From positions 19,819 through 83,818 of the IMG/VR virus record IMGVR_UViG_3300035696_000029: a DNA stretch of 64,000 nucleotides, one strand, 5' to 3'. This stretch comes from a virus (Duplodnaviria; Caudoviricetes). The translations under genes and the position numbers were made by a program. Positions 17,647 through 52,616 of this stretch are shown piece after piece (position 1 is the first letter of the stretch; every line of letters begins with the position of its first letter). The notes below the pieces were generated by a model. It had not been told where the DNA came from, made no database searches, and saw only the letters and a list, made by a program, of their open reading frames with translations.

Positions 17647-19629
17647 TTAACGTCTTTTTCTATGGTAGAACGGACTAACCACTGGAGTACCACCTCCCAG
17701 TCCCTGTTGGGTCATAATCCTACGTTGACGATCCAGGATTTTTAGCTCTTGCAAGCTGACTCCATCTAGCCCTAGAATAGGTGCGGCGGGTTTATTCATT
17801 TGCTCTTGCACAACTAGACTCAAACCTGTGGGATCTAGCATCATGCGTCCTTCTTCCTGTAACCAGTTAAGTGCCAAGAATGCATTACCTTGCGTAGCAT
17901 CGGACATATCGTCATGAGCATCTTTTTCTAGTGGAGCTTCGACCTTGACCATGTACTTGGTTGTGTACTGCGCTTCAACCATTTTCATTTCATGAATGTA
18001 CTTAGGAACATAAGGAAAACTCACCGATCCCTTATCAATATAGCCCTTTAAAGCAAAGGCCATTCGGGAGTTCATAGCAGGTGTAAGGTTTATCAACTCT
18101 ATATTATGAATTTGGTTAATTTCCAGCAATTGAACCAGCATTTGTCCACCAAATTGATCCGTGCCTCCTCGGAAGCAAGGCATTATCTGATTTAGCAATT
18201 TGAGCCAGTGAACTACATCCTCCAACGGGAGTGTTTTATAATTTATATACTTCTTAGTTTCAACATATTCATTCTGAGGCCAACCAGGCCACTCAAAAGC
18301 TTCTTTTACCATCATGCGATCAATGTAGTCAAAGATCAATCTGATGCCCGTTGCACCACCCGATTCCAAGTGAGAAATAGCAACGGCGGTAGCATCATGA
18401 TCAAAAGCCAAATCTATCCACCAGAAGTATTGACGACCAATGTTGAGAGGAGTAAAATGTGTGCAATTTAAACGGGCTGTACTAGGAATAACTTCTCCCT
18501 TTTCATCCCATTTACAATCGACACAAGCTTTCAATTGAGATTCTTTAATGTACGATTCGGACGATTCTAGGAATTCACCACCAAATTCGGCTTTCCATGT
18601 TAAAGAGTTCTTAGAATATTGATCGCGCAATTCCTCTTCAGGAATGCGAGGATTCATCTCTGCGGTAGAAACCCGCATAGTAAAGGTTTTGCTGTCGGCA
18701 CCTTCTTCGATAGCCATTTTGTGCAAATCATACATCTTACCAATCTTTTTCCACGGACTGCTGATGGATAAGATAAGACGATCGATAACAGTAAAGGGAT
18801 CATTTGTCTCAGGATCTATCTCAGTGTGAGAGAAGTTTGTAGTGGCGGGAGTAGCCGCGCTGTAAACTTCATCCGAAGACGAACCTTTAGCCGAACGGAA
18901 ATGAGCAAATTCATCAAATGCTAAGAAGACTGATGAAGGTCCACGAACCGCCGTAGTGGTACAAGGATAGGAGGCCACCTTGATGGTTGGAGTAATGTCA
19001 CGCTTATGACGATCTGCTTCGGATACAAACTTCATTTCCGAGTTGGAATTGACTCGGATATAGGGATTGAAGAAAGGACTACGGTTAACGTCTTCTTGCA
19101 ATTTAGAGAATAAGCGGTTAGCTCCATCGTCATCCTGTGCCAAGAAAGTAAAATCAATAGGTGAGCCGGGAATCAATTTCCAGAATTCCTGTGGCGAACG
19201 GATATTCAACAGACGATAGAGAGCATAACCTCCAGCAGCCGATACACACTGACTTTTCCCACCTCGGCGTCCAGCAAATACACAAGCTTCATGGTATCCA
19301 CCTTCAGGTATATCTCGCCAATCATTAACATTACAGCGACCTTGATCGTTTAGAATATGGATAAATTCGGCTTCAGAAACTTCTCGTTCTAGGACTGTGT
19401 GGAATGGGTCCCACATCTGGACCTTTACAGGCTTGTAATCAAAGGGGACACCATAGATAGCTTTAACGATAACTCTCTGAACAGGATAAAGCGTAATTCC
19501 GAGACCTAGAGGAGACTCAATGAAATCGATAGCATTGAGAATCTCATGGGAATCCTGAATGGTGCTGTGGACAATTTTTCCGAAAACACTACCAGCAGTT
19601 TTTCGGCTAAAACGTTCTTGACGTGGCAT
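17647..19629 (-). CDS. terL: Terminase large subunit
   Basis: Walker A AGRRGGKS, Walker B FLAFDEFAH, RNase H-like nuclease WWIDLAFDHD...HDDMSDA. Confidence 0.93.
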   Translation of the reverse strand: MPRQERFSRKTAGSVFGKIVHSTIQDSHEILNAIDFIESPLGLGITLYPVQRVIVKAIYGVPFDYKPVKVQMWDPFHTVLEREVSEAEFIHILNDQGRCNVNDWRDIPEGGYHEACVFAGRRGGKSQCVSAAGGYALYRLLNIRSPQEFWKLIPGSPIDFTFLAQDDDGANRLFSKLQEDVNRSPFFNPYIRVNSNSEMKFVSEADRHKRDITPTIKVASYPCTTTAVRGPSSVFLAFDEFAHFRSAKGSSSDEVYSAATPATTNFSHTEIDPETNDPFTVIDRLILSISSPWKKIGKMYDLHKMAIEEGADSKTFTMRVSTAEMNPRIPEEELRDQYSKNSLTWKAEFGGEFLESSESYIKESQLKACVDCKWDEKGEVIPSTARLNCTHFTPLNIGRQYFWWIDLAFDHDATAVAISHLESGGATGIRLIFDYIDRMMVKEAFEWPGWPQNEYVETKKYINYKTLPLEDVVHWLKLLNQIMPCFRGGTDQFGGQMLVQLLEINQIHNIELINLTPAMNSRMAFALKGYIDKGSVSFPYVPKYIHEMKMVEAQYTTKYMVKVEAPLEKDAHDDMSDATQGNAFLALNWLQEEGRMMLDPTGLSLVVQEQMNKPAAPILGLDGVSLQELKILDRQRRIMTQQGLGGGTPVVSPFYHRKRR

Positions 19630-20216: not shown

Positions 20217-22070
20217 TTAAGTACTGTACATCTTGTAAGCTGGCCAAGTTTCGAAACGAGTCAAAAAACTGTTGTCAGCGTTTCGATCTGCCATTGCCCA
20301 AGTAAATTGAGCCGAACTCTTATAAGGATCTAAAGCAGGGAATGCTTCTTTGGCAGCTGCAAAATTAGGGAATGATTGAACTCCCCAACCATCCGGGGTT
20401 ATTTGACCATTTTTTACACCTACAACTTGAACAGGATAATCAGGTGAAAATCCTACCCATGCTGCTGTTTTACTAGAAGAACCAAATCGCGGATCTCGCT
20501 TTTTAGGAATATAATCTGAACCTGGTATCGAGCGAGGCACCCAATCTGTAACTGGACGACCCTTAGCTTCATCCCATTTTAAACCGTATTGAGCTAAAAT
20601 TTGTTTAGATTCTTCTACACTGGGACCGCCCATCACACCCAGCATAGGTGCGGGCATCTTTAGATTTTGTATCGCAATCTTTAATTGAGCATACTCAGGA
20701 GTGCCCTTTTCTGGCATTGGCTTTGTAATCTTAGTTGAAGGTGTCCGTCCATGACGACGATCGTATTCTTCTTTACCTTGTTGAACAGCGTTCTGCATTT
20801 CTGGATCAACAGGAGGAGTCAAAGCAGCTTTACTTGTTCGTTTTCCTACAGCATGACTAGCTTTGGTTTGCTGCATCATACGGAAAACAGGTGAGTCTTT
20901 GGGTTCGTTTTCAAAATAAGTCTCCCAATCGCGACGTTTGTTGGGATCGTTCTCGTAGTTACTTTCCCACAATTTGTAGAATTCATCTTCAAATGGAGCA
21001 AATTGCTCTTGAATAGCGTCATAAGCTTGATTGTAAGCTTCTTCACTCATGTTGCCCCAATTTCCAGAACGCTGATCTTGAATATCGCTAACATCGACCC
21101 GAGCAGCTTGTGAGAAGATCTTAGCAATATCTTCTCGGCCCTTATCCTTGAAGAATTTTGCTGTACGATGAATCATGCTAGGCACATTATATTCTTCGCG
21201 GTTACGACCCGAATAATTATCCCACAATTGCATAAAACCACCGTTCAGAACTTGAGCAACAACGATTTCCGCATCTTCTTGATAAGGATGAACTGCTGCT
21301 GCTTTTAGACTTGCTTTCTTAGGAAGAGGATTTTTCTCAGATGCACGTACTTCTTGTACAAGTTCACTGCAATTTATACGGAGGCCACTCTTTACCAATT
21401 CACCAATGATTTGAGGATAGTTTACCGTAACAACATGACCCTTTGATAATCCAATAGGTTCTGCTGATGGACGACCGCCATGAGTTCCCATAGGCTCAAT
21501 AGGAAAAGGAACAGGCATACCTTCTTGATAAACAAAGACTAAAGTCCACTCGCGACCAAACATGTTACCATATTGTTTTACGCAAGAATCAGGCAGTTGT
21601 TCTCCACCTGTCCAATTGGCATATTCTTGCTCAGCTTGTTCTAAGTATTGTGATCCTTTGTATTTAAGGACTAGTCTGTAACCTTGACCTTGTAAAGCGG
21701 AAGCAAATTGTGCCATATCTCCGCTTATTTCAGGAACAACAACAGATTTGGTACTCTTGAGTTTATCTCTAGAAATACTGAACGCTGCGTCAGGATCGCC
21801 AAGAGGACAAACTCTCCAAAGATTTCCTGTGCTTTCCAAAACTTCTACTGGTTCGCCTTTCCACATGTAAGTCTCGGGAGCTACACCTGGTGCAGCAGCG
21901 CCATCGGCGGTTTGTAAGAAAGCAGCAAAACGAGAAGGGAGACCAGTACGATCAAATGCTTTTCCTAATTCTAGGCTAGCTTGATCGCCAGCATTCTTTT
22001 GCACGCTTTCAATAGCATCACTGAAATCATCTGCTGTAATATGAAAATCTTCAAGTCGATTCTGGCTCAC
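20217..22070 (-). CDS. Modular putative head-internal protein with KxA-delimited segments (617 aa)
   Basis: KNA, KKAS, RTA, KAS and KTAA motifs separate distinct segments; co-transcribed with the 2249-aa gene. Confidence 0.6.
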   Translation of the reverse strand: MSQNRLEDFHITADDFSDAIESVQKNAGDQASLELGKAFDRTGLPSRFAAFLQTADGAAAPGVAPETYMWKGEPVEVLESTGNLWRVCPLGDPDAAFSISRDKLKSTKSVVVPEISGDMAQFASALQGQGYRLVLKYKGSQYLEQAEQEYANWTGGEQLPDSCVKQYGNMFGREWTLVFVYQEGMPVPFPIEPMGTHGGRPSAEPIGLSKGHVVTVNYPQIIGELVKSGLRINCSELVQEVRASEKNPLPKKASLKAAAVHPYQEDAEIVVAQVLNGGFMQLWDNYSGRNREEYNVPSMIHRTAKFFKDKGREDIAKIFSQAARVDVSDIQDQRSGNWGNMSEEAYNQAYDAIQEQFAPFEDEFYKLWESNYENDPNKRRDWETYFENEPKDSPVFRMMQQTKASHAVGKRTSKAALTPPVDPEMQNAVQQGKEEYDRRHGRTPSTKITKPMPEKGTPEYAQLKIAIQNLKMPAPMLGVMGGPSVEESKQILAQYGLKWDEAKGRPVTDWVPRSIPGSDYIPKKRDPRFGSSSKTAAWVGFSPDYPVQVVGVKNGQITPDGWGVQSFPNFAAAKEAFPALDPYKSSAQFTWAMADRNADNSFLTRFETWPAYKMYST

Positions 22071-22072
22071 TG

Positions 22073-25000
22073 TTATGCTCCTTGAGCTTCACGAGTTCCT
22101 ACAACGAACTTATACTTCATCACCATAGTGTCCGTATCGATGCTCTCAGCACGGACAAAAACTTCGTACACGAAGCCACCATCTTGTTCTTTATTCCAAA
22201 CAGCCGATTGTGCCCAAGCATCATTAATGGCATTCTGGATTTCTCCATCGTTCAATTTGTCTAACAAATACTTTACACGAGAAGCCGGATCAACAACCGT
22301 GGCATCTACAGGCATAAATCCTGGCTGTGCCTTTTCTACTTGAGCCAGTTGAACTTCACCCATACCGGGAACCTTATCCATCAATGGGCGAGAAGTAACC
22401 TTGAATGCTGAGACTAGAGCGGCTGCAATTTCACCGCAGACTTTCTTTAAGAATTTGGAGAATTGCTTAGGTTCGTCTGATGCTGCTACTTTCTTACTTA
22501 CAATAGCTAGAGCCGAACCATCTGGACCCGGAGTATACTGCTGATGAAATTCATCCGTAAACATCATACCACGGATGTCGTTTTCTTTACGAAGCGGAGC
22601 ACCCTCTAACACTTCGGGCTTACCATCACGACCTATGCCCGCACCAGCTGCAGGAGAAGTACTCACATAACTAAGTTTGGTGGTATCAAGAGATTCATCG
22701 GCTGCCTCGGCGATGTCGCTATCGTAACCCTGAGAAATGTCGATATCCTCAATCATAGGACTGTTGGTGTCGTTTGGATAGTCTACGAGTTCATGCTGAA
22801 GTTCAGGATAGAATTCGCGCAGAGCTTGTCCTGGGAAGAAGAAATTGAATCCTGCTTTCTTTTCAGCTGGGACTTTGTAGTATCCTTTTCCGTTGCACTT
22901 TACACAGTTAGGATTATCTTTTCCATTGCAGTAGGAACACTTTTCCCAAGTTTGACCTTTTTCGTCTTTCCACTGATTGCTTGATTTCTTTTCTTTCTTG
23001 AAAAATGGTTCCATATTACGTTCCTTCCGATCCTTTGCAGTTTTAGCTTCTTTCTTTGCAAATTCAACATCGGCTACTGCTTGAGCATCACTCGTGGTCA
23101 TGCCCTCGGCTTCAAGTTCGCGCACACGCTTGGCATAACCCGGTGGATCGTTTGGAGCATCTTGCTTCTTATCCCAACATTCTTGACAATATCCAAAATA
23201 AGGAACAGGTCTTTCTCTCCTGCATTCCTTACAGTTTCCTATTGTTGTTTGATGCTCGTAACCGTCAGCTTCTTTTTCTTGAATTGCACTAATCATCGGC
23301 GTATGTCCATCTATGTCCGTTCCACCATCAGCTCCAGTAGAACCATCATTTGTAATTGGTATCTTTGATGCTGAAGCAATATTGATAATCACCTGAGTTC
23401 CGGCATTACCTTCAGCTTTCGGGACAGTCACTTCTTCCACTTTACCTACACCAGGAACATGAACATCCGTTTCTACTCCATGATCTTTAGCCGCATTTTG
23501 AACTTGCTCTAATTCGTTTTCCTTTTCACCAATGCTCTTGCCAACTTCCATCTCCTGTTGAGTCTCAAGAGCCTCGCGCATAGCATTTACATTTCCGCTT
23601 TCGGGTGATTCAAGATTGCCCGGCAGAACTAAAGTTCCTGTTGCTGTCTTTTTAGGAATTGTTCCCAACGTGGAACAAGTAGTACACTGTTTCTCATTAC
23701 CACGAATTGCATGCTTAGTTTCACGACGACACTTTGAACAATATGAAGTCTGGAAACCGGAATTCTCATGCTCCTCAGCTGTCTTAGGATGAGTAGAAGC
23801 CCGAGGACATCCGCCATCCTTTGTCAACTCACACTTGCACACAGGGCAGTTGCCACTATCTTTTGCAGTCTTCTTGGAACCCTTCCGTTCGTACCATTCT
23901 GGATTTGTACTCATTAACTTTAGATATTCTACCGCACACTTTCGGCAAGCTGCTCTTAATTGAGCTTTACCGGATTCGGATTCTATATCAATTGGAACTC
24001 GAAGATCCCAAGCGACCGTTCTACCACACAGGGCAGGTGTATCGGCTCCGCCGCCTAACATAACTCCTTTCGGTCCCTTTTCACGAATATGCCAAGGAGA
24101 AGCACCACCAGCTGTTACCGTTTCACAATAGAAGAATTTCGCATTTGCTAATTTATCTTCTGGTAGTTCGGGAGACTTCTTGTTCCAAAAGGCTGCTGTC
24201 TTTGTTGATCCCGAATGAGCATGCATGTCTTGCAAATGTTTCTTAGCTTTATCCTCTGTTGTATGAGAAGAAAGAATCTTACCCGTTTCATGGGAATAGA
24301 CACACCATTCCGCCAGATTACCATCGGAGTTCCGATGTCCAGGACAATGCTTAACGTAAGCAACTTTTTGCATAGAACCAAATTTATCCACTAAACCCAC
24401 ATTTCCGCAATTATTGCACTTTGCTGCTCTTCCACCTTTAGAATTTATCCAAACAGTATTTCTACTCCCACAAACAGGACAATTTCCAGGTCCCCCTCCC
24501 TTCTTATCGCCAGCAACTTTTTCGTCTTCTAATTGTAATTCTTTCACGCATCCATCGCAAAGAGACGTTATCCGCTCAACAGGTACTTTTAATTTATGGC
24601 AACGAGTGCAGCCCTTTAAAAGTGCCGTTTTAATGGATGCTGTTTGTTTAGATTGAGGAACATGCTCAATTTTAAGATTAGAAGAGCTAACTGCTCCGCA
24701 ATTTAAACACTTAACTCCTTCTGGACATGTAGTAAGATCTTGGGCATTACACTCCCGTGCCACTTTTCCTATCTTTTTAGATTCATGACCTGTTCCATCA
24801 CAAGCACGGCAAACTCTACCATTTTGCATTCCTGAACCACCGCAAGCTTCGCAAACTACCCATGCTTTCTTTTCTATTTCAGAACTTGATTTCTCTTGCA
24901 ATTCTTTTTCTTTCAGCCAACCAGGAATGTTCGGCTCGCCTTTCCCAACTTCAGCGGGTTTCTTATAAGGCCGCAATTTATCCATGTATTTCTCAACCAA

Positions 25001-28000
25001 AGCATTTACCGCTCCTGCTGGCTTCTGGATGTTAGCGTAGTCTTTTTGAAACTGCTCGGCATCTGGACCACGTAGGACGTATTCACGTCCGTTCATAATG
25101 ACGAGCATGTGGAAACCCTCTCCATCTTCTCCTTCCTCAACGGTAATTGAGGCATTCTTGATGTAAGAAGCTACTTTTTCACGAGCAGACGATTCTTTGC
25201 GATGATAATGACCACACTTCGGGCAACGTTCTCCGCCAACTCCTTTGTTGCAACCGCATTGGTAACAATCAGCGGTCTTTACTGTTGCCTCTTCTTTCTT
25301 ATCGTCTTCAATTTTCTGCCAGCACTGATGGCAGAGTCCCTCATCATCTAAGCTACGATCCTTACCGCACTCTTTGCACTTTCCCATCTTGCGGGCAGTC
25401 TTTGAAGAAGCATTTTTAGCTAGATCTTCAAAACCAGACATATTAACAAAAGCTTTTTCTGTGAGATAACCATTTTGATCTAAATAATTTTTCTTCTGAA
25501 GTTCATTCAATACGAGAGGATCGGCATTTCCGCCTTCCATTGAATAATCAAAATTACGCCAATCTGTAATTCCATAATCATCAAGATTTATAGCTATATC
25601 GCCAATAAATTGCAATAAATCAGCAGCTTTTGCTGAAAGATCCAGTGCGGATGCAGTCTTAGATTCTTCCTTCTTTCCTTCTCGTTCTTTCTTTTGTTTT
25701 TCCCATTCCTCTTCATTAAAACCTTCTGGTGATCCTCGAGGAGAGCAGAATTTGCATTCACAACCATCTCTGTGGCCGCCAGCAGCTTTAGACTTTTCTT
25801 TTTTGCCTTTTGGGCATGACTTGTTGGCACCCTGAACAGACCATTTTTCTCCACAGTACTCACACTTGCCATCAACAAAAGAGTGAGGAGTAAACTTAGC
25901 AGCGGTCTTAGGTTCTTCCGATTCAGATTTTGATTCTTCAGATTTTGATTCTTCAACTTTCGATTCTTCAGGCTTCGGTTCTTGGGATTCCTGTTGCTTT
26001 GATTCCTGTTGCTTTGGTTCCTCATGCTTGGTAGCCGAATTCTCAAGAGCAGCGGGAACAGCCTGAGCCTGACTATCACTTATGGATCTTTCCTTCTCAG
26101 GAGTATCCGATTTCGCTGATTCAGGCAAAGCGCCAATCCCACCTCCTGGCTTAGGTTGTTTGTTGTTCTCATCATTAGGCACCTCAACCAGAGGTGCTTG
26201 ACCCATGTCCTGTAAGACTTCATTCAAGATGTCATCATTGCTAGGAACATCGTCAGCAAACTTACGACGATCCCCATACTTCTTCTGTAACATTGCTTCA
26301 TGCTTGGCTCGTTTATCCTGACTATGCTGCGAAGCAGCCACAAAACGCTCAATAGTCTCACCTTTCCAAGCAGATGAAGCTTGAATTTGGTACTCTGCAT
26401 TGTCATCAACATCGGCAGTAACTTCTTTGTTGATGATGTCGTTCAGAAGACCTATAGAATCGACATACTGAACAGTTGATTCAGCCATGTTGCGTGGATC
26501 GATAAAACCGTCTTCAATTAGACCAGCAGCATCTTCATCCCAAACATCAAGGACTTCTTTATCACAACATTCGTCCATCAAACGTATATTGAAACGGTCC
26601 CGCTCTTCCCACGTGGTCAAATGAAATTGATGACCTTTGTAGTCGTAGAATTCATTACGATCTTTGGCTTGCTTTATCAAACTGCCCTTGACACTTCTGT
26701 AACCACCGTTGATTACATTTTCTATAGCACGCAAGTCACGCATGAGATCTTGCTTACCATAAGGAGCCGCTTGAAGCTTTTGAACAATTGTAGCACGATC
26801 ATCGCCTGTTGCTTGTTCCAACTTTTGAATTTCTGCTTCTTGCCAACTGGTAAATTGATTTTCTATGGCTTTAAAAGTTGCACCAGGTTTTTCCAGTAGA
26901 CCATCGGTTAAATACTCGGCAGCAGAACTCAAAGTTTGGGATGGAGTTAATTCAGGATATGCTTTACTGAGTTTACCTGTAACAAGCATACGATCCCCAA
27001 CATATTCTACTAGACGGCGGAAACCGTAGCTGCGACGTGGATAGATATTTGTTAAACCCGGTTCTCCTACAATTACATCGGCACCGCAAACTTCCTGCCA
27101 ATGATCTCGTGGACCGCTATTTTCCCACATACCGTCAGAAATCTGACCCTCTAGTTCACAAGTCCACAGCCAAACTTGAGTCTTATTGGCAAAACGGATC
27201 TGCCCATCAGAAACACCAGCAGTCTTAACAGAAATGTCCGACAGATTACTGCTCTCGTGTATGCCGTAACCACCCGGAGCTTTAGGATCAAAGAAAGACT
27301 TTCTTGGACTATCTTTGGTTGCGGTCATTTGATACTCAATGGCTTGTTTCATGCCTTCAACACTATTGAAGCCACTAGGATAAGTATCCTGGATCCAACC
27401 ATAATCAACAGGGTTGCCACCACGTTGTTTAATAGCATCCACCATTGCTGGATTATTTTTGAAGAATTTTGGTCCAGTTGTGTGCCAATGGCAAACTCGC
27501 CCACCCTGAAGATGTCCTTCTATTTGCACATCAATACGACGATCTCCTCCAACTTCTTTTTCATAAGTAAAGGGAGCACTGCGGCTCGTGCGCTTAAAAC
27601 CCAAGGCACGAAGCTCTCTAAAATAATCTGAATCAGCAGTCTTAACAGCAGCACGCTTTGGAGTTCCGTCGGAATTCAATTCAATACCGATTGGTTCTTG
27701 TTCGCTTTCATGAGCTTTGGCTGCTTCTTCATTGAATTTGACTTCACTAACTTCTTTATTCTTCTTAGCATCGGCAGCTTCGGTACCTGGTCCAACGTTG
27801 GTTGTTCCTGCGGGTACACCATGTGGTGCTTCGCAAGCTTCTTTAGAAGATTTCTTTGTCTTTTGGCATTCAGCACAAAGTTTTTCTTTTGTTATTTGAT
27901 GGCATTCATTAGATCCACGATGAGCGGGGCAAGCATGATCAGAGCATTCACAAAAATGATCTTTTTTAGCAGCTAAACGAGGAACTTTCTGACTGCCTTC

Positions 28001-28822
28001 CTCGTGATGTTCTTCTCCGGCTTCTTGAGGAGTCTTAACTCCCAAAGCTTTTTCAACCGCCATACCTAAAGCATCAAAGACACTGATTTCCTCAGGAGCT
28101 AGAGTTTCCTTAGTAACAGCATCGGCAGTTTTAACAGACAAGAAAATCTTCGGCTTATCCGCGCTACCCAATTTATTAAGAACAGGATAAGCTCTCAACG
28201 GATTCTGGGACAATTCAGGGAAAGGCAGCTTAGGAGTAATGTCCGTTACATCCAGTTTATCTGTACTGACGTCGGTCATTAGCGCATCAAATGCACTAGA
28301 CAACCGTGGATCGTAGTAAGCACCAAACACTAGATGACGCAGCTTGGTACGAAGCTTTTCGTCATCCTTGTCAAATTTAAATACAACATATTCCCGCTTG
28401 TTGAACCAGTGAGGAGCAAACAATACAATGGATTCAAACTTGCCATCAGGAGTCTTGAATAGTTTGTCCTTAATGGTTGACATATCGGCTTGACTGTACT
28501 CATCGAATTCATTGTCGCCAATGCGATGAGTAATCAAATCGGATACTTCCTCACCACCAAATTCCTTTACCAGGCAGCCATACAGCAAGGCAATGGGAAA
28601 TCCTTCGAGTTTATCGGCAATCTTGGCAGGGATAATATAGAGACGACCAATAGCAATGTTTTGACGGAATCCCTTGTAAAAAACTTCAAAGGATTGAACA
28701 TCGCCCGTGCTGCGAGCTTCTTTCTCTCCCGCTTTAGTTGCTTCGACCACTTTTGTCAACAAGCCTTCATTGACTTGAAAGCTCTGGAATGATTTGAGTG
28801 CTACTGTTCCGCTTTGACCCAT
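22073..28822 (-). CDS. Giant polyvalent protein or polyprotein (2249 aa) with many zinc-ribbon modules
   Basis: 13 exact KTA tripeptides plus many KVA/KKA/KQA/KFA; about 14-15 small Cys/His clusters; no tape-measure-like helical repeats. Confidence 0.75.
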   Translation of the reverse strand: MGQSGTVALKSFQSFQVNEGLLTKVVEATKAGEKEARSTGDVQSFEVFYKGFRQNIAIGRLYIIPAKIADKLEGFPIALLYGCLVKEFGGEEVSDLITHRIGDNEFDEYSQADMSTIKDKLFKTPDGKFESIVLFAPHWFNKREYVVFKFDKDDEKLRTKLRHLVFGAYYDPRLSSAFDALMTDVSTDKLDVTDITPKLPFPELSQNPLRAYPVLNKLGSADKPKIFLSVKTADAVTKETLAPEEISVFDALGMAVEKALGVKTPQEAGEEHHEEGSQKVPRLAAKKDHFCECSDHACPAHRGSNECHQITKEKLCAECQKTKKSSKEACEAPHGVPAGTTNVGPGTEAADAKKNKEVSEVKFNEEAAKAHESEQEPIGIELNSDGTPKRAAVKTADSDYFRELRALGFKRTSRSAPFTYEKEVGGDRRIDVQIEGHLQGGRVCHWHTTGPKFFKNNPAMVDAIKQRGGNPVDYGWIQDTYPSGFNSVEGMKQAIEYQMTATKDSPRKSFFDPKAPGGYGIHESSNLSDISVKTAGVSDGQIRFANKTQVWLWTCELEGQISDGMWENSGPRDHWQEVCGADVIVGEPGLTNIYPRRSYGFRRLVEYVGDRMLVTGKLSKAYPELTPSQTLSSAAEYLTDGLLEKPGATFKAIENQFTSWQEAEIQKLEQATGDDRATIVQKLQAAPYGKQDLMRDLRAIENVINGGYRSVKGSLIKQAKDRNEFYDYKGHQFHLTTWEERDRFNIRLMDECCDKEVLDVWDEDAAGLIEDGFIDPRNMAESTVQYVDSIGLLNDIINKEVTADVDDNAEYQIQASSAWKGETIERFVAASQHSQDKRAKHEAMLQKKYGDRRKFADDVPSNDDILNEVLQDMGQAPLVEVPNDENNKQPKPGGGIGALPESAKSDTPEKERSISDSQAQAVPAALENSATKHEEPKQQESKQQESQEPKPEESKVEESKSEESKSESEEPKTAAKFTPHSFVDGKCEYCGEKWSVQGANKSCPKGKKEKSKAAGGHRDGCECKFCSPRGSPEGFNEEEWEKQKKEREGKKEESKTASALDLSAKAADLLQFIGDIAINLDDYGITDWRNFDYSMEGGNADPLVLNELQKKNYLDQNGYLTEKAFVNMSGFEDLAKNASSKTARKMGKCKECGKDRSLDDEGLCHQCWQKIEDDKKEEATVKTADCYQCGCNKGVGGERCPKCGHYHRKESSAREKVASYIKNASITVEEGEDGEGFHMLVIMNGREYVLRGPDAEQFQKDYANIQKPAGAVNALVEKYMDKLRPYKKPAEVGKGEPNIPGWLKEKELQEKSSSEIEKKAWVVCEACGGSGMQNGRVCRACDGTGHESKKIGKVARECNAQDLTTCPEGVKCLNCGAVSSSNLKIEHVPQSKQTASIKTALLKGCTRCHKLKVPVERITSLCDGCVKELQLEDEKVAGDKKGGGPGNCPVCGSRNTVWINSKGGRAAKCNNCGNVGLVDKFGSMQKVAYVKHCPGHRNSDGNLAEWCVYSHETGKILSSHTTEDKAKKHLQDMHAHSGSTKTAAFWNKKSPELPEDKLANAKFFYCETVTAGGASPWHIREKGPKGVMLGGGADTPALCGRTVAWDLRVPIDIESESGKAQLRAACRKCAVEYLKLMSTNPEWYERKGSKKTAKDSGNCPVCKCELTKDGGCPRASTHPKTAEEHENSGFQTSYCSKCRRETKHAIRGNEKQCTTCSTLGTIPKKTATGTLVLPGNLESPESGNVNAMREALETQQEMEVGKSIGEKENELEQVQNAAKDHGVETDVHVPGVGKVEEVTVPKAEGNAGTQVIINIASASKIPITNDGSTGADGGTDIDGHTPMISAIQEKEADGYEHQTTIGNCKECRRERPVPYFGYCQECWDKKQDAPNDPPGYAKRVRELEAEGMTTSDAQAVADVEFAKKEAKTAKDRKERNMEPFFKKEKKSSNQWKDEKGQTWEKCSYCNGKDNPNCVKCNGKGYYKVPAEKKAGFNFFFPGQALREFYPELQHELVDYPNDTNSPMIEDIDISQGYDSDIAEAADESLDTTKLSYVSTSPAAGAGIGRDGKPEVLEGAPLRKENDIRGMMFTDEFHQQYTPGPDGSALAIVSKKVAASDEPKQFSKFLKKVCGEIAAALVSAFKVTSRPLMDKVPGMGEVQLAQVEKAQPGFMPVDATVVDPASRVKYLLDKLNDGEIQNAINDAWAQSAVWNKEQDGGFVYEVFVRAESIDTDTMVMKYKFVVGTREAQGA
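25915..26025 (-). repeat. Imperfect 15-nt tandem repeats encoding KQQES/KVEES/KSEES
   Basis: Protein reads KQQES-KQQES-QEPKPEES-KVEES-KSEES-KSES just before a KTA motif. Boundaries are approximate. Confidence 0.6.
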
Positions 28823-37232: not shown

Positions 37233-40200
37233 TTATGCAGCAGTTGGAGGTTCAGTACCTTGCGCCACAGGAATAGTAGCCTTGGTTGGCATCTTGGGCT
37301 TACCGCTTTCATCGCGGTCGTTTACCCAACCTTGACCACCGGGGCCAGCATTGGCTTCCTTGGGTTCTTCTTCGACTTCTGTTTCGTCGACCTTGGGTTC
37401 TTCTTCGACTTCTGTTTCGTCGACCTTGGGTTCTTCCTTTTCAACTTCAGGAATATTACCTTCTAATTCTTCTTTGCCTTCATCAATGAAAGCTTCTTCC
37501 GCTGGAGTTGTAGTCAATTCAATGCCCATATTCTCAGCAAAAGCTTCTAGACCAGCAGCAACGTCATCCAAATTGTGGAATAGATCATTCACTGCTTCGG
37601 CCAATAGCTCGGGATTCTCTGTTGCGATTTGACGGAACTTTGGTCCTAGAGCACGACGTGCAGCAATACGAGTCTTCAAGGAAGCTGTCCGAGGAGCGTC
37701 GACCAAATCCAGATTCTCACGGAAAGCATTTATACGATCAGCCATTTCACCAAAGGCTTGCGTTAATTGATCAAGAGCTTCGGCTGCTTCAGGAGCTTGC
37801 TTCTCAGCAACAAAACGTAGCCGCGCAAACTTTGTGCTCGATGCCTTGCGAGCCTTGATTTTCTCCACTATAGATGCACGCTTGCTCGCGACGGTGTCTG
37901 GGGTCTTTGCTTCTGACATAACTTCCTCCTGTTGAGTGGGTTCCGTAGCGGCGGGAGCTTCCGTGGTAGCGGGAGCAGCCTCAGCAGGAACCTTGAATCG
38001 AACTTCAAACCATGAATCTTTTGGCCATGGATGATAGTTGTCATCAGATCTTGTAATTATAGCATTAGGAACAAGCTTCTTTATGGCAGCCGCTAATCTT
38101 TCAGCTGTCATACCATGACGATAAAAATACCCACGTTTTACAATATACTCTTGATATTTACCCGACCAACCGATGCTATCAGCAAGAGCAGCATCTTCAA
38201 GCTTTTTGATAATCTCACGGTTCGCACCAGCGAGATGTAATGAAGCACTCTTTAAACTTTGAATGTGCAAACGCTGAAATGGCAAATCAGGCGGAACAGT
38301 CTTCTTCATTGAAAAATCCTCTTTTCCAGAACTAGGTACGTTTTCCTCTCCCGTACCGGGTATAATAGGACCTACTCCCTTTTCTGGTTCGTTTTCTTCG
38401 GCTTGATCTGAAGGCACTCCACGATTGTTAACATTTATTTGAGGATTCTGTTGATCCTGCAAACCTTGTGTACCGCCCAAACCTGGTGTAGCAGCTTCTT
38501 GCTCAAACCCGCGTTCCTTATCGGAAGTTGGAGTATTTTCATGTGGAAGCCGTCCTGTGTCATTCTCGGAAGTTTGTGGACGAATGCCGTCATAGAATTC
38601 ATGACCTATTCCAGCAGTTTTCTGATCTGAACTGACATGGCTAGGAGAGTCGCTATAAGAGCAACCTCGTGCGTGACCTTCTTCACAAGCAGAACAGATT
38701 GATTGACCGCATTCAGGACAATTAAATTGAGGCGCATTACAGCAAGATGAATTAGGGAGCGAAGCAGTTTTCTTTTCTTTCATTTCAGGATCGCATTTTT
38801 CACAGTAACCTGTGGGACCAACCATAGTTTCTTTACCACATTTAACACACTTACCTGTATGACGGCGGTCCCAAATAGCAACTTTGTTCAATAATTCAGC
38901 TTCCATACGACATTGAATAACAGAAGCAAATTTAGATGCTTCTTTCCCATAAAATTCTTCAGCAATTACATCTGCATTGCAACAATTCGATCCGCCGTAT
39001 GAATATTCACCTTCAGTCACTGTACGGCCACAATTGCTGCATACTGCGCCAGGATGTTTCTTCATTTCTTCTTCATGTGTGCCAGGTTTTGCAGTTGTTA
39101 TTGCTTTTTTCTTTACAGGATGAAACTTAACATCTGATTTAGCTTTACTTACTGCGCCAGTTCCACCACAATGATGACAGTTTGCAGCTTCTTCATCAGA
39201 CCAATCTTCGCAAACAGGGCAGGGATATTCATCTTTAGCTTGCTTTTCTATAGGTTCGGTTGGTTGTTGAATATTTTTGTCAACAGTGTCGGGAGATACA
39301 ACTTCAGCTTTAGCTTGAGAAATATCTTCACTGATATCATCAGCTGTTTTGGAAAGTTGCTTCTCTAATTCTTTAATCTTACGTTCTGCTTTTTCTCGTT
39401 GACTAGGACGCTTGGCTGTATCACGTTCTTTCTTCCAAGAATCCAATTGACGCTGAATATCTTCATTTGCAATTTTAGAAATTGCCAAATTTTTTCCCTC
39501 ATCCGTTTTAGCTACTTTTAATGAAGATGCTTTTGCTGGCGCAGCTTTAGCCGGGGTTGCAGCGTCGGGCAGGTTATCTACAACAGCCGCTAGTGGGCTG
39601 CCCTCAAGCTTATCTGCATTTTCTTCTACATATTGCTTCACGAGCGGAGCAAATTTCTGATAGTAGGACTTCATTGAGTCAAAACCAAGACCTTTAGGAT
39701 GCTTATCATCTTTAGTCTGTTTTGCCCAATCGGGATAGATGTCTGAAATTTTAGGAATCGAATGATCGTTTACAATCCAATCCACAATAATATCCCAAAT
39801 CTTCAAGAAATTTTGAGCAGTCTCAGAACGCTGACTCTTATCTAGCCACTCAGCAAATCCTCTACGAAATGCCTCCATATCGGCTTTAAATTCGGCTAGT
39901 TCCTGACCAGTTGGAGCTACAGCATGTTCTTCTGTATCAAGAACATTGTACTCTTCATGCTCTTTATCTCCTACGTTCGGGCCACCTTCTGCAGGTTGAT
40001 ACATAGGATCTGTTAAGGGATCTTGCATCTTATCGATGAATTGATTAGCTTCCTGTTTGCGACCCAAGAAAGTAGACAGCAAGAATTGTGTGACTTGTTT
40101 TTCTAAAGGCAATTGTTGCACAGCAGGAGGGAATCGTTTGATTGCTTCAGCAAAGCCGCCCTTACCTTTATTGGGATCTAAGACGCGACGATCACCTAGA

Positions 40201-40643
40201 TTAGTGATAATAATTTGATGAATGGCTTCGTCTTTGATTTCGTCGTCACCCTTCAAACTAGGATAGAATTTCTTCTGGAACCACTTTGCCCAGTTCCAAC
40301 TTTCATCCACAGGAAGACCTGCTGCCCGGATGTAGGATTTGACATATTCATCCCAATCCTCATTGTAAGCCAACACGTTGCGTAACCATGCGGCTATCTT
40401 TGCAGCATAGCGATTCACGGGATAAAAGTTAGCGGGAGTCTGAACGGGCTTCCCCTGAAGATCTGCCAACTTAAAGACATATCCGTCAGGATCGACGACC
40501 TTGGCCCGAACACGGAATTGTGTACCGTCAACATTGGTAACAATGGATCCGGTCTCGAGCAAGTGAGCAACCCGGCTGAGATCCGCTGTATGCTTTTGAG
40601 GCTCTGTTTTTACAGTGCCCAAAAGTGAGGCGGTCAACTTCAT
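37233..40643 (-). CDS. Large modular head-associated protein (1136 aa) with zinc-ribbon modules and KxA motifs
   Basis: 3 KTA plus KVA, KQA, KEA, KFA, KRA and RTA; four Cys clusters (CPVC..CHHCGGTG, CSNC..CC, CVKC..CEKC, CC..CPEC..CSAC); acidic C-terminus. Confidence 0.7.
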   Translation of the reverse strand: MKLTASLLGTVKTEPQKHTADLSRVAHLLETGSIVTNVDGTQFRVRAKVVDPDGYVFKLADLQGKPVQTPANFYPVNRYAAKIAAWLRNVLAYNEDWDEYVKSYIRAAGLPVDESWNWAKWFQKKFYPSLKGDDEIKDEAIHQIIITNLGDRRVLDPNKGKGGFAEAIKRFPPAVQQLPLEKQVTQFLLSTFLGRKQEANQFIDKMQDPLTDPMYQPAEGGPNVGDKEHEEYNVLDTEEHAVAPTGQELAEFKADMEAFRRGFAEWLDKSQRSETAQNFLKIWDIIVDWIVNDHSIPKISDIYPDWAKQTKDDKHPKGLGFDSMKSYYQKFAPLVKQYVEENADKLEGSPLAAVVDNLPDAATPAKAAPAKASSLKVAKTDEGKNLAISKIANEDIQRQLDSWKKERDTAKRPSQREKAERKIKELEKQLSKTADDISEDISQAKAEVVSPDTVDKNIQQPTEPIEKQAKDEYPCPVCEDWSDEEAANCHHCGGTGAVSKAKSDVKFHPVKKKAITTAKPGTHEEEMKKHPGAVCSNCGRTVTEGEYSYGGSNCCNADVIAEEFYGKEASKFASVIQCRMEAELLNKVAIWDRRHTGKCVKCGKETMVGPTGYCEKCDPEMKEKKTASLPNSSCCNAPQFNCPECGQSICSACEEGHARGCSYSDSPSHVSSDQKTAGIGHEFYDGIRPQTSENDTGRLPHENTPTSDKERGFEQEAATPGLGGTQGLQDQQNPQINVNNRGVPSDQAEENEPEKGVGPIIPGTGEENVPSSGKEDFSMKKTVPPDLPFQRLHIQSLKSASLHLAGANREIIKKLEDAALADSIGWSGKYQEYIVKRGYFYRHGMTAERLAAAIKKLVPNAIITRSDDNYHPWPKDSWFEVRFKVPAEAAPATTEAPAATEPTQQEEVMSEAKTPDTVASKRASIVEKIKARKASSTKFARLRFVAEKQAPEAAEALDQLTQAFGEMADRINAFRENLDLVDAPRTASLKTRIAARRALGPKFRQIATENPELLAEAVNDLFHNLDDVAAGLEAFAENMGIELTTTPAEEAFIDEGKEELEGNIPEVEKEEPKVDETEVEEEPKVDETEVEEEPKEANAGPGGQGWVNDRDESGKPKMPTKATIPVAQGTEPPTAA
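37358..37436. repeat. 33-bp tandem repeat (about 2.4 copies) encoding EEEPKVDETEV
   Basis: CCTTGGGTTCTTCTTCGACTTCTGTTTCGTCGA at 37358 and 37391, with a partial copy at 37424. Confidence 0.9.
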
Positions 40644-46171: not shown

Positions 46172-47713
46172 CTATTCCATACGACCTCTTATCATGATGC
46201 TTAATTTGTGGGGAGAAGCAGACGTTTGAAGAGAAGCAGTAGAAGAAGGAGAAGCTAGAGGAGATGAAGCGGAAGTACTTCGTCTTTCACCAATATGACG
46301 AACATAGCCTTCCGGCAGAATAGCAGCGTAAAAACCCAACTGTTTGTGTAATTCGCTTAAAGCAGATTCGCTCGCTAGTTCAATTTTGTTGCTAGTGTAC
46401 TTACTGTAGTTTCCAATGGCTTTGTAATCACTAAGACGTCTAAGACCTGGATTGAAACTAAAGCCGTGCCAAATCTTATCAAAATCGTAGCCCATGACTT
46501 CAAAAGGAAATTGTTCTAGTTTTACAATAGGATGATAATTAGTATCACTATGCGCTCGAATCCAAACTTGAATAATTTTTGGATAATTTTCTAAAATTTT
46601 CATGCTCTGTTCTATAAATCCAGAACGATAGAATTCCCAATCTTCTTCACAATGAAAAATGTAAGGAGTAGCGACTTCTTTGTATGCTCGGTCGATAGAA
46701 GCGACTTGACCTAAGTTATTTACATTCTTAAGATACAATGTATTAGGAGGCAAATTTGAAGGAGCCTGACCCAATCCATCTTCAACAATTATGTACCGTT
46801 CAATAGGATAGGTATTGAATTTAGCAAAGCTATCCAAAGTACGTTCTAGCAAATCTGTTCGATTACAAGCCGTTATAACAACTGTAACTGCAAGTGAAGG
46901 ATCAGCTATCGTCTTTTTTGCTCTAACTTCTTTTGGATTATGCATCCGTCCACGAATCATAATTTCTTGATGTTGACGAATTTGCACTCCCTTAGCAACA
47001 CCTTCTTGAATTTCTTTAGGCAACGCATAAAGTTGTTCCATTTGAGCCACTGTACAAGCATGCATAGAGACATAATCGTGAAATTCAGGAAGTGCTTCTA
47101 CGGTGATGTAATGATTGTTCAAATGAGACACTAAGAATCTGGGATCTTTATTCATCCTGATATTATTGGCTGACATCACTTGACCTGTTCGATAATCTTC
47201 AGCCCAATAATTAGGATCTGTAGAATCAGGAGCACCAGCTGCCACAACTAATTTAGCCGCTTTTGAACTCAACCAATAACCCGAGCCGCCACTGATGTAT
47301 TGCCCTTTATAATCTTTTTCGTCACCAAATCCAAAGTAATCGTATCTTTCAAATCCACTCTTTAGCATACGATCCACATAAACAAATGTATCATCATCAC
47401 ATTTATAAATGAAATCGAATTTGTTTTCTACTCCCCAATTCCAAATAGCACGCATTTTATGAGGAAGATTAGTATAGTCATCAGCTACATCCAAAAGAAC
47501 TTCATCTGCTAAAGGAAGACGTTGCAAGCCTTGTCCATAAAACAATTTGTGTACGACTTCAAAAGGGGTTTTCAGGTCCTGAAAATCTTTCCACCAAGTA
47601 CCGCGAATACCTTCGATACGATTCTCGCTTACTCTAGGAACACCCATGGCATACTTACCATAATCATATTTCGAACAAGCGGGAACAGCGATGAGAACAC
47701 GAATCGAAGCCAT
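46172..47713 (-). CDS. Two-domain glycosyltransferase (GT31/Fringe-like plus GT2-like)
   Basis: N-domain FDFIYKCDDDTFV...ISGGSGYWLS; C-domain VVITACNRTDLLERTLDSF...FHCEEDWEF. Confidence 0.85.
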   Translation of the reverse strand: MASIRVLIAVPACSKYDYGKYAMGVPRVSENRIEGIRGTWWKDFQDLKTPFEVVHKLFYGQGLQRLPLADEVLLDVADDYTNLPHKMRAIWNWGVENKFDFIYKCDDDTFVYVDRMLKSGFERYDYFGFGDEKDYKGQYISGGSGYWLSSKAAKLVVAAGAPDSTDPNYWAEDYRTGQVMSANNIRMNKDPRFLVSHLNNHYITVEALPEFHDYVSMHACTVAQMEQLYALPKEIQEGVAKGVQIRQHQEIMIRGRMHNPKEVRAKKTIADPSLAVTVVITACNRTDLLERTLDSFAKFNTYPIERYIIVEDGLGQAPSNLPPNTLYLKNVNNLGQVASIDRAYKEVATPYIFHCEEDWEFYRSGFIEQSMKILENYPKIIQVWIRAHSDTNYHPIVKLEQFPFEVMGYDFDKIWHGFSFNPGLRRLSDYKAIGNYSKYTSNKIELASESALSELHKQLGFYAAILPEGYVRHIGERRSTSASSPLASPSSTASLQTSASPHKLSIMIRGRME

Positions 47714-48405
47714 TAGATATCCTTATCCGTGAATATAACATCACCATATTCTGTGTTGAAATTCAATCGTGATTTTCCGTCTGAATTGTAAGCATTTTTG
47801 TACAGATTCCCTACTTTAGTGATTGTAGCATACTCCATCTTCCCATTTGAACCGCCTTCTTTCCACCAACGTAGGTGAGTACTCAGCATCAAATCAGGTT
47901 TACGTTCGGCAAAGAATTTCCAATCCTCTAAGATTTGCACTTCGGCACCTTCTGTATCCATTTTAATAAACAACGGATCAGGAATGTCTTTGCAAAATTC
48001 TCGGAGTGTAATACAAGGCACAGTAACTGAATTCTCTTTGCAAGTCTGTCGTGTGCAAGAACAACCTAATAAAGCGCCACCCATAGAAGTAACTCCTATG
48101 TGACCCATTAAAGCAATGTTATAGAGAGAAATATTTGACAAGCTGTTAACATTGATGTTCTTGTTCAAGATTTCCCAAGCTACTGGATCAGGTTCAATGC
48201 CATAGACACATTTGTATAGCTTAGAAGCAAACAATGTATCAGCACCAATCCAAGCACCAATGTCGATGCAAACGACATTAGGTGAAGCAAAATGTTTAAT
48301 TGTAGAAAAATCGGATTTGTAAACTCCATCTTCAATCCATTGCCAATAATCAGCAGGATCCTGTTCTACCAGAAAAGTGAAACCATGAATATTCACATTT
48401 CTCAT
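47713..48405 (-). CDS. FkbM-family SAM-dependent methyltransferase
   Basis: CIDIGAWIGADT, YGIEPDP, FIKMDTEGAE. Confidence 0.9.
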   Translation of the reverse strand: MRNVNIHGFTFLVEQDPADYWQWIEDGVYKSDFSTIKHFASPNVVCIDIGAWIGADTLFASKLYKCVYGIEPDPVAWEILNKNINVNSLSNISLYNIALMGHIGVTSMGGALLGCSCTRQTCKENSVTVPCITLREFCKDIPDPLFIKMDTEGAEVQILEDWKFFAERKPDLMLSTHLRWWKEGGSNGKMEYATITKVGNLYKNAYNSDGKSRLNFNTEYGDVIFTDKDI

Positions 48406-48407
48406 TT

Positions 48408-49538
48408 TTATACTCCTCTACAATAAGTGCAAGAACAAATATCTGGACGACGTTGTCCATAATTCCAATTATGAGGTACTTCCCATAATTGAGATACAGG
48501 CGGAACAGTAATTGCACTCACTTCAGGAAACTTTGCTTTCATTTCGTATAGTACACTAGCAGGGCAAGGATGCACAGCAATATACGGATGGTCGCTAGGC
48601 AACTCATTAGGATAGATGTTTCCATGATGAGTCTTAAAACTTTGTGCACCATCTAAGAATCTTGTATCACGATAACAATGAATACCATGACGCCAAAGAA
48701 TTTCTCCTGTCCATATATCACCCCAAAATTTTCCATCTGAGCAAAGGGATGGTGGCGTATCGCTGACTATTTTCATTGCTTTGCGACTTAAAAAGAAACC
48801 TGCTCCGCCATGGGCAGTTCGTAAGCCGCGATCTATTTCTAAATGTTTTGGATAATCCAAGCACCAACCCATATAATCATGTTGTTCAAATCCGCAAGCC
48901 AATAACCGATTCATCCAAACATAGGTGTCCGTATCGCAACGGAAGAGAAAATCATAATTATTGTCATAAGCATATTTGCTCATCATTCTAGTACGATTAG
49001 TACGAATAGGATCGTGAGCATTGTCATATTGACTCTTTTCTACAAGACCTAAATCAGCATCAGAAAAACATTTGTAATCGCAAGCACAATCTTTCAACCA
49101 TGTATTTGCGCAAGCTATGGCTCTATCTCGATAACGTTGCTCAGTTTTCATTGGAATGGCTATAAGCAGATGCTTACTTTTGCCTATTTGTTCAATTGCT
49201 GAAGCACCACTAGCTTGAGGTATAAATTGATCTTCTTGAAGAGGAGGAATCTTGATTTGTGCAACTGTAGTTTTCCAATCAATGAATTTTATTGCTTTAT
49301 CATCTATGTAGTAGTCAGCTTGAGGTTTACGTGGAAGTATTTCATCATAAGGAACTGCATTTTGATTTAAAAGTTTTTCCATTTGGCTACGTTCAACATC
49401 AGTCAAACGGGCACTGTAGATAGCTATCAAGTAGTCTTTACGAAGTAGAGATAGAATTTCAATACAATCAGGAAGTATATTTGCGCCGTCATAGATTACT
49501 GCATCAAAATCTACACAGATTCTATTTTTGCTCGCCAT
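48408..49538 (-). CDS. HAD-like phosphatase domain fused to a GT31/Fringe-like glycosyltransferase
   Basis: ICVDFDAVI...KPQADYYIDDKAI, then YDFLFRCDTDTYV...AHGGAGFFLSRKAM...WGDIWTG. Confidence 0.8.
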   Translation of the reverse strand: MASKNRICVDFDAVIYDGANILPDCIEILSLLRKDYLIAIYSARLTDVERSQMEKLLNQNAVPYDEILPRKPQADYYIDDKAIKFIDWKTTVAQIKIPPLQEDQFIPQASGASAIEQIGKSKHLLIAIPMKTEQRYRDRAIACANTWLKDCACDYKCFSDADLGLVEKSQYDNAHDPIRTNRTRMMSKYAYDNNYDFLFRCDTDTYVWMNRLLACGFEQHDYMGWCLDYPKHLEIDRGLRTAHGGAGFFLSRKAMKIVSDTPPSLCSDGKFWGDIWTGEILWRHGIHCYRDTRFLDGAQSFKTHHGNIYPNELPSDHPYIAVHPCPASVLYEMKAKFPEVSAITVPPVSQLWEVPHNWNYGQRRPDICSCTYCRGV

Positions 49539-52596: not shown

Positions 52597-52616
52597 GGTC
52601 TCTATTAAATAGTCTC

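Follow-up and report, generated by a model that had tools for sequence, protein, structure and literature searches.

A stretch of 64,000 nucleotides (hereafter, the window) of the Caudoviricetes record IMGVR_UViG_3300035696_000029 in IMG/VR (positions 19,819 to 83,818), which stems from a single 83.8-kb virus contig, contains on its minus strand one uninterrupted open reading frame (ORF) of 2249 aa with an ATG start (window 22073–28822). The encoded protein is, with a confidence close to certainty, a mosaic in which two conserved ends enclose a variable middle that accretes modules. Many of the modules meet at the tripeptide K-x-A, which is also conserved in the capsid protein, the portal and the head maturation protease of the same contig. 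With considerably more reserve we favour the reading that the protein is a late, virion-targeted cargo polyprotein that would be packaged, cut and delivered. A sequence-only reading of the window had described a chain of modules between two anchor domains in one 2249-aa protein, and the ORF is confirmed, as are, by comparison with relatives, the conserved ends; 'anchor' is a name for the conserved ends, whose function is proposed only. The features discussed below are listed in Table 1.

Stand-alone homologues of the modules

Several modules have stand-alone homologues. A phmmer scan with residues 397–1596 against 1.84 billion representatives returned 1079 matches at E values up to 1e-3. Module 536–719 can be aligned over its entire length with a family of 160–190-aa proteins: among the matches listed, 75 of 89 are no longer than 1.6 times the module, and 25 of these short ones align from Met to C-terminus with the KTA-to-KQA module. 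In the IMG/VR loci, from which the genomic context of the metagenomic stand-alone proteins was taken, the same family lies in ORFs of at most 230 aa at 54 of 68 loci and is embedded in ORFs longer than 900 aa at two. A shorter member of this family is gp666 of Bacillus phage G. The YVKHCPGH module (residues 1489–1543) was found at 48 IMG/VR loci, standing alone at about 10 (ORFs of 58–160 aa), N-terminal at 16 and embedded at 20, and in other proteins it is often trailed by SGS-x-KTA or KQA. Stand-alone ORFs of 75–93 aa correspond to the core at about 1558–1635, ORFs of 50–102 aa match the motif at about 1888–1926 with 75–90% identity, and a single ORF of 167 aa (P0171) is 72% identical to module 397–535.

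For module 720–830 no stand-alone form was found, the block occurring elsewhere only inside larger proteins, and residues 1885–1930 and 1478–1546 were without a tblastn match in GenBank phages. Isolated phages in GenBank provide a relative for a single module, and several modules are without a homologue outside this phage group. The resemblance to small independent phage proteins that the sequence-only reading had suggested is borne out for four of its five example blocks and also for 1544–1653; it does not extend to the KDRNEF block 720–830. Embedded versions are restricted to this phage group, whereas stand-alone proteins are widespread; the simpler direction of evolution would therefore be capture into the polyprotein.

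Split, fused and shuffled loci in relatives

Searching IMG/VR with each of the two ends, and afterwards with one module, identified over 20 distinct loci orthologous to the gene, the contigs reaching 463 kb. In 50,697 phage records, tblastn with the entire protein matched Tunturi_5 and phage G only. Collinearity is not kept across the relatives; span, content and module order all vary. End to end, lengths range from 1080 to about 3600 aa. At the lower limit, gp350 of Tunturi_5 (1080 aa) matches residues 3–253 and 1985–2244 only, both with 47% identity, and its middle is unrelated. Across the more than 20 orthologous loci, module content and order differ: module 1483–1541 belongs to the N-end gene in some relatives and to the C-end gene in others, modules 1221–1298 and 1728–1816 appear in reversed order in L003 and L005, and other blocks are common to just one relative. 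Close relatives retain collinear stretches (in P0005 over residues 1–932), and the element at about 825–935 is present in all N-end genes.

Eleven distinct loci have a split form, in which an upstream gene begins with the N-terminal domain and a downstream gene finishes with the C-terminal region. In each the second gene has a proper ATG at or overlapping the stop of the first, which rules out an artefactual split. The fused single gene is seen only in this window, in Tunturi_5 and in L035.

One site illustrates the gain and loss of a cassette. In P0006 a K-T-A is followed directly by module 536–719; in the window the K-T-A-bounded module 397–535 is inserted between the two, and P0005 and L004A hold a different, weakly WGR-like module at this place. 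The proposal that the gene is a hotspot accreting cargo modules is supported by the stand-alone homologues, by module shuffling and by cassette gain and loss at K-T-A.

Four further observations were made in the relatives. In the N-end gene of L003 (residues ~1180–1235; L003:13540-13700, plus strand) a 17-aa peptide is triplicated in tandem, each copy standing right after K-T-A (KTA-DYAEGDLETYFDEG). Both L003 and L011 also have repeats of a roughly 30-aa linker with K-x-A at its end. Embedded in the N-end gene of L011 (residues 938–986; L011:12812-12958, plus strand) is the C-terminal toxin-binding domain of an Xre/MbcA/ParS antitoxin (Pfam 5.9e-7, 29.8 bits versus a cut-off of 24.5). Finally, on the 300-kb contig that carries the fused 1277-aa gene of L035, a module of the 536–719 type lies in a separate ORF of 1364 aa (L039) about 7 kb away, which indicates that modules move between polyproteins of one phage.

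The K-x-A motif in the 2249-aa protein

KTA is the most frequent tripeptide of the 2249-aa protein, with 13 occurrences versus 0.95 expected (Poisson P 3e-11). The expectation is the mean of 2000 composition-keeping shuffles, in which the maximum was 6. For K-[TVQKS]-A, 22 occurrences were seen versus 5.9 expected. The enrichment extends to 35,020 aa of homologues from other contigs (window excluded), where KTA was counted 82 times versus 15.4 expected. Apart from tripeptides contributed by the conserved ends, no other is strongly enriched in these proteins; for KKA, KQA, KEA and KVA the enrichment is 2.4–3.7 fold. Elsewhere on the contig K-T-A is concentrated in other large head-region proteins.

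Four of the five blocks quoted in the sequence-only reading begin, as it had stated, right after a K-x-A (397 after KTA 394–396, 536 after KTA 533–535, 720 after KQA 717–719 and 1489 after KVA 1486–1488). The fifth, at about 1903, lies inside the unit that runs from KEA 1850–1852 to KTA 1927–1929. At the 13 K-T-A sites synonymous codons vary and the flanking DNA is unrelated; selection therefore acts on the peptide and not on the DNA, and a recombination joint at the DNA level is ruled out by the same observations. No internal repeats were found in the 2249-aa protein. It contains 22 CxxC motifs, from which about half of the pieces bounded by the motif would be single zinc-ribbon-like peptides.

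The same motif in capsid, portal and protease

The capsid protein has LLK(T/S)A, with the tripeptide at residues 19–21, in all four sequences compared (K-T-A in three, K-S-A in Tunturi_5). The portal has K-T-A just upstream of the conserved core in four of four sequences, and in the protease K-x-A is found near both ends at a position that is constant in all sequences compared, x being T, S, I or V. Since the motif is conserved at the expected maturation cuts of capsid, portal and protease, K-x-A is probably the recognition motif of the head protease, with the putative scissile bond after its Ala. In SPN3US, sites of an A-x-E motif mapped by mass spectrometry show the same pattern across head proteins (PMC10052503).

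The 2249-aa gene adjoins that of the large terminase (17647–19629) within the head and packaging region, and the contig also codes for a family A DNA polymerase and a tail sheath. The protease is 61% identical to the annotated protease of Tunturi_5. The capsid protein is 89–90% identical to those of IMG/VR contigs that CheckV places at about half complete with 155–186 kb, and 70–72% identical to that of Tunturiibacter phage Tunturi_5, a myophage isolate of 309 kb (PMC11924767). Bacillus phage G and the cluster C mycobacteriophages have more distant relatives of both proteins. Judged by this kinship of capsid and protease, the contig is part of the genome of a jumbo phage that belongs to the Tunturi_5 / phage G head lineage.

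The conserved ends

The N-terminal domain was placed at about 230 aa by the sequence-only reading and comprises residues 1–233, with 50–68% identity in 14 relatives. It is closed by the K-T-A at 231–233, which is kept in 14 of 15 N-terminal domains. The C-terminal region is conserved over about 265 aa (1985–2249; 57–65% identity in relatives) and is preceded by K-K/E-A. This is longer than the C-terminal domain of about 130 aa proposed earlier, and only the last 136 aa are predicted to fold. In the AlphaFold2 (AF2) model, a conserved K-V/T-A at 2111–2113 falls exactly at the boundary between the disordered and the folded part.

The best fold match of the N-terminal domain, obtained with VIA-align on a model with a predicted local distance difference test score (pLDDT) of 55, is YkuJ (2ffg_B; Z 7.9, rmsd 2.4 Å over 78 residues); this Z-score, from a run against 48,161 chains, is within the tool's range for chance best matches. 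YkuJ has no known function. For the C-terminal region nothing above Z 4.3 was found among the same chains, a PDB sequence search gave nothing relevant, and on these models no fold is assigned to either end. A role for the ends as loading devices is proposed from their conservation and position, and by analogy with the targeting sequences of T4 and the propeptides of phiKZ-like phages.

Proposed mechanism and alternatives

We infer cleavage, packaging and ejection of the protein, the roles of its ends and the functions of all its modules from the observations above. In the course that we propose, the precursor would be made with the head proteins and enter the prohead by means of one or both ends (1–233; 1985–2249). 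The prohead protease (51694–52650) would then cut after the Ala of K-x-A, where x is mostly T, and also V, Q, K or S, freeing about 15–23 pieces of 29–255 aa, of which about half would be single zinc-ribbon peptides and the rest small globular domains. These pieces would remain inside the head and pass into the host together with the DNA, and some would probably counter host defences or aid early takeover. Free-standing small genes could be added, lost or moved at K-x-A without harm to the rest; the modules would be exchangeable at the joints, and the stretch a hotspot, because every joint is the same short peptide. A wider form of this proposal is tentative, with the balance of probability somewhat against it: K-x-A would be a universal cassette joint in the phage G / Tunturi lineage, the ends would be a two-part loader, fused or split, and the 15–25 injected mini-proteins, many of them zinc ribbons, would be a re-assortable anti-defence kit, so that any in-frame small gene placed between joints becomes capsid-delivered cargo.

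A number of points weigh against the cargo polyprotein. Neither end resembles a known capsid-targeting or scaffold-binding element in Pfam, PDB sequence or structure searches, no paralogue of either was found on the other K-x-A proteins of the contig, and AF2 confidence is low for the two ends alike (pLDDT 53–55). Exact K-T-A sites are few (0–1) in the C-end gene of most relatives. Some K-x-A may be part of a fold and not a joint, as could be the case for KVA 1486–1488, which aligns with the conserved N-terminus of the stand-alone YVKHCPGH family. Searches of Pfam, PHROGs and the ESM Atlas gave no function for any module: Pfam on the whole protein (E up to 1) returned only a chance COX5B match, PHROGs one family of unknown function (residues 536–587), Pfam on 26 members of the 536–719 family nothing, and the ESM Atlas no match of 0.9 or above for that family. 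In the literature we found no published cleavage specificity for this protease clade, no K-x-A specificity, and no proteomic or biochemical datum for this phage group; known giant-phage prohead proteases cleave after Glu, not Ala (PMC10052503).

If the protein were instead a giant multidomain 'polyvalent' protein that is packaged or injected whole, K-x-A would merely be a favoured flexible linker. Such proteins, with 2–15 domains, are common in phages, some of them, among others the virion RNA polymerase of N4, are packaged unprocessed (PMC5512222), and cleavage of the 2249-aa protein is itself a prediction. A plain linker nevertheless fails to explain the motif at the N-termini of capsid and portal and at both ends of the protease, as well as the units of 29–45 aa that are each bounded by K-T-A, and Pfam (E up to 1) detected neither an embedded peptidase nor a domain of the polyvalent catalogue; this is the most serious of the alternatives, and an unlikely one. 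Cleavage at K-x-A would be retained, and a host function of the modules lost, if the protein were a prohead core or filler whose fragments leave the head, as with T4 gp22 or phiKZ-like propeptides. SPN3US has long propeptides that are cleaved at multiple sites and then removed from the head (PMC10052503), and the middle of the 2249-aa protein is poorly conserved, much of it being low-complexity or tiny zinc-ribbon units. That several modules are conserved families which also exist as independent genes in many phage contigs, including a 35-aa motif at 75–90% identity, speaks against a filler, as does a separate 690-aa candidate scaffold gene between the protease and capsid genes, and we give this alternative little credence. 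The 2249-aa gene is itself unlikely to be the scaffold, as the 690-aa ORF already fills the usual scaffold position in the protease-capsid interval.

A polyprotein serving co-expression, cut in the cytoplasm by a phage or host protease into products that act in the cell unpackaged, would fit the facts that packaging here is deduced and that no stand-alone homologue is annotated as a virion protein. The gene nevertheless lies among head and packaging genes, and it shares its motif with proteins whose processing in other phages takes place within the prohead. Assembly into the prohead is normally required before such proteases become active (T4, HK97), which further speaks against cytoplasmic cutting and leaves this alternative improbable. 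The motif could, lastly, be a by-product of composition or linker ancestry without any role, in a fast-evolving large protein of unknown function. Lys (9.9%) and Ala (8.4%) are frequent in the protein, and counts pooled over relatives are non-independent. A by-product is nonetheless very hard to credit given that composition-keeping shuffles never exceeded 6 KTA versus the 13 observed, that unrelated proteins have the sites at conserved positions with a variable middle residue, and that cassette boundaries coincide with the motif.

Comparison with known systems

The class of mechanism is a known one, that of head proteins processed by prohead proteases and of polyvalent or internal proteins delivered with the DNA; no literature on phage polyproteins of this kind was found. 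The prohead proteases of giant phages use a three-residue motif to cleave numerous head and ejection proteins, among them the portal, the capsid protein and the protease itself (PMC10052503); the products are packaged along with the DNA and later ejected (PMC10052503, PMC5694885). In the systems of phiKZ gp175, 201phi2-1 and SPN3US gp245, N-terminal propeptides of 111–254 aa are removed and some precursors are cut at more than one site (PMC10052503, PMC5694885). The present proteins share with these a short three-residue motif common to portal, capsid and protease. They differ in that the phiKZ-type motif is A/S/G-x-E, cut after Glu, whereas K-x-A would be cut after Ala; in that the protease and capsid are kin to those of phage G and the cluster C mycobacteriophages, not phiKZ; and in that giant-phage substrates consist of one mature protein and its propeptide, compared to about 20 unrelated modules here, several with stand-alone homologues.

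Polyvalent proteins are likewise very large mosaics of many unrelated domains, with solo versions and fast-changing architectures, all of which are seen here. They adjoin virion genes, are predicted to enter the virion and reach the host along with the DNA, and have been likened to viral polyproteins by the authors who described them; release is ascribed to an embedded peptidase (MPTase) and packaging to MuF or portal-linked domains (PMC5512222). In contrast, no domain of their catalogue (MuF, DarB-type helicase/methylase, ParB/DdrB, ART, MPTase) was detected in the 2249-aa protein by Pfam or PHROGs, its joints are proposed sites of a head protease acting in trans, and its modules are mostly tiny, many of them zinc ribbons.

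The internal proteins IPI–III and Alt of T4 are targeted to the prohead core, trimmed by gp21, kept in the head and injected, and some of them counter host defence or aid takeover. The course proposed for the 2249-aa protein resembles theirs in prohead targeting, protease trimming and injection. T4 uses an N-terminal tag of 10–19 aa that ends in hydrophobic-x-Glu, with one cargo per gene, whereas here a 233-aa N-terminal domain and a 265-aa C-terminal region would serve many cargos. No leader resembling a capsid-targeting sequence was found at the N-terminus, which instead has the conserved 233-aa domain ending in K-T-A.

The Dar proteins of P1 (DarA, Hdf, DarB, DdrB) are internal to the head, some are processed, and they protect the injected DNA (PMC12810830). 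Tunturi_5 gp350 has been labelled 'DarB-like antirestriction' by Phold (PMC11924767). A DarB-like identity is not supported for the 2249-aa protein, as tblastn gave no P1-type match in the 50,697 phage records and Pfam detected no methyltransferase or helicase domain.

The present case differs in K-x-A versus x-x-Glu, in its head lineage, in the number of pieces (about 20), in the clear evidence for whole-gene capture and for cassettes gained and lost at the joint, in having two conserved ends, and in the occurrence of split and fused forms. If the proposal is correct, giant phages turn ordinary small genes into proteins co-delivered with the DNA without separate targeting signals, and one locus evolves by cassette exchange at a peptide joint. 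A K-x-A cleavage rule would then apply to the protease lineage of phage G, Tunturi_5 and many uncultured soil phages of 300–460 kb, and would let mature virion proteins be predicted from sequence. The QISDGxWEN and YVKHCPGH families and the DPPGY...SDAQ motif, all conserved and so far unannotated, would be candidate early-acting or anti-defence families. As Tunturi_5 (gp350) is a cultured relative, the central claim is directly testable.

Feature map and neighbouring genes

Table 1. Parts of the 2249-aa protein and other head genes of the window
Feature	Window position	Strand	Remarks
Whole ORF (P0001)	22073..28822	(-)	Fused form; two adjacent genes in most relatives
N-terminal conserved domain, residues 1–233	28124..28822	(-)	Proposed prohead-loading domain or propeptide
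Residues 234–396	27635..28123	(-)	Low-complexity, Cys-bearing linker ending in K-T-A; partly conserved in relatives
Module 397–535	27218..27634	(-)	K-T-A on both sides; absent or swapped for another cassette in relatives
Module 536–719, QISDGxWEN family	26666..27217	(-)	Bounded by KTA and KQA
Module 720–830, KDRNEF block	26333..26665	(-)	Elsewhere only inside larger proteins
Residues 831–974	25901..26332	(-)	Conserved element ~825–935, then acidic E/K/S/P-rich low-complexity stretch ending in K-T-A
Residues 975–1218	25169..25900	(-)	K-T-A-bounded units of 34–86 aa, mostly single zinc-ribbon-like CxxC...CxxC; one Cys-free 86-aa unit of low GC3
Module 1219–1320	24863..25168	(-)	50–60% identical to C-end genes of relatives, at varying positions
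Residues 1321–1488	24359..24862	(-)	Further short CxxC-rich units separated by K-x-A
Module 1489–1543, YVKHCPGH family	24194..24358	(-)	Followed by SGS-x-KTA; elsewhere stand-alone, N-terminal or embedded
Module 1544–1653	23864..24193	(-)	Core ~1558–1635 with stand-alone homologues
Residues 1654–1727	23642..23863	(-)	Two K-T-A-bounded zinc-ribbon-like peptides of 29 and 45 aa
Residues 1728–1852	23267..23641	(-)	~1728–1817 conserved in compared C-end genes; unmatched in the fused Tunturi_5 gp350 and L035
Residues 1853–1929	23036..23266	(-)	Zinc ribbon and DPPGY...SDAQ motif (1888–1926); ends KEA-KTA
Residues 1930–1990	22853..23035	(-)	Basic linker and zinc ribbon; ends in K-K-A just before the C-terminal region
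C-terminal region part 1, residues 1991–2113	22484..22852	(-)	Strongly conserved, predicted disordered; ends in conserved K-V/T-A
C-terminal region part 2, residues 2114–2249	22076..22483	(-)	Predicted alpha/beta domain, pLDDT 62–86, no clear fold match
Portal protein, 827 aa	1278..3761	(-)	PHROG match 1e-17; conserved K-T-A at ~88–90, just before the conserved core
Major capsid protein, 319 aa	44455..45414	(-)	PHROG match 2.7e-42; conserved K-T/S-A at residues 19–21
Head maturation protease, 318 aa	51694..52650	(-)	phrog_18299, 1.8e-13; K-x-A near both ends

Within the middle of the protein, the Cys-free module 1058–1143 (25394–25651, minus strand) differs in base composition, with a GC content of 0.34 and a third-position GC content (GC3) of 0.19 versus about 0.43–0.47 and up to 0.43, respectively, in the rest of the gene. 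No homologue of this module was detected, and it may be a recent acquisition. Several zinc-ribbon units are likewise without detected relatives.

The downstream neighbour, separated by a gap of 2 nt, encodes 617 aa (20217–22070, minus strand) with one K-T-A and a DMP19-like domain whose Pfam match (1.4e-6) is above cut-off. As this gene is missing in relatives such as L011, the variable zone reaches past the polyprotein. In L011 the large ORF after the C-end gene (1059 aa) starts like the terminase of the window, by its first residues only. Beside the protease gene lies that of a 1294-aa protein (52617–56501, minus strand) with four K-T-A and a ParB-like domain at about 1078–1200 (PHROG E ~5e-4), which is probably another cargo polyprotein of the same system. 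The antitoxin domain of L011, the DMP19-like gene and the ParB-like 1294-aa protein are hints of counter-defence cargo. A further protein of 1136 aa (37233–40643, minus strand) has three K-T-A and 19 K-x-A sites, and one of its zinc-ribbon units weakly resembles residues 1144–1205 of the 2249-aa protein (E 0.007). The interval between the candidate scaffold and capsid genes (46172–49538, minus strand) contains genes for glycosyltransferases (GT2, galactosyltransferase, Fringe-like) and an FkbM methyltransferase.

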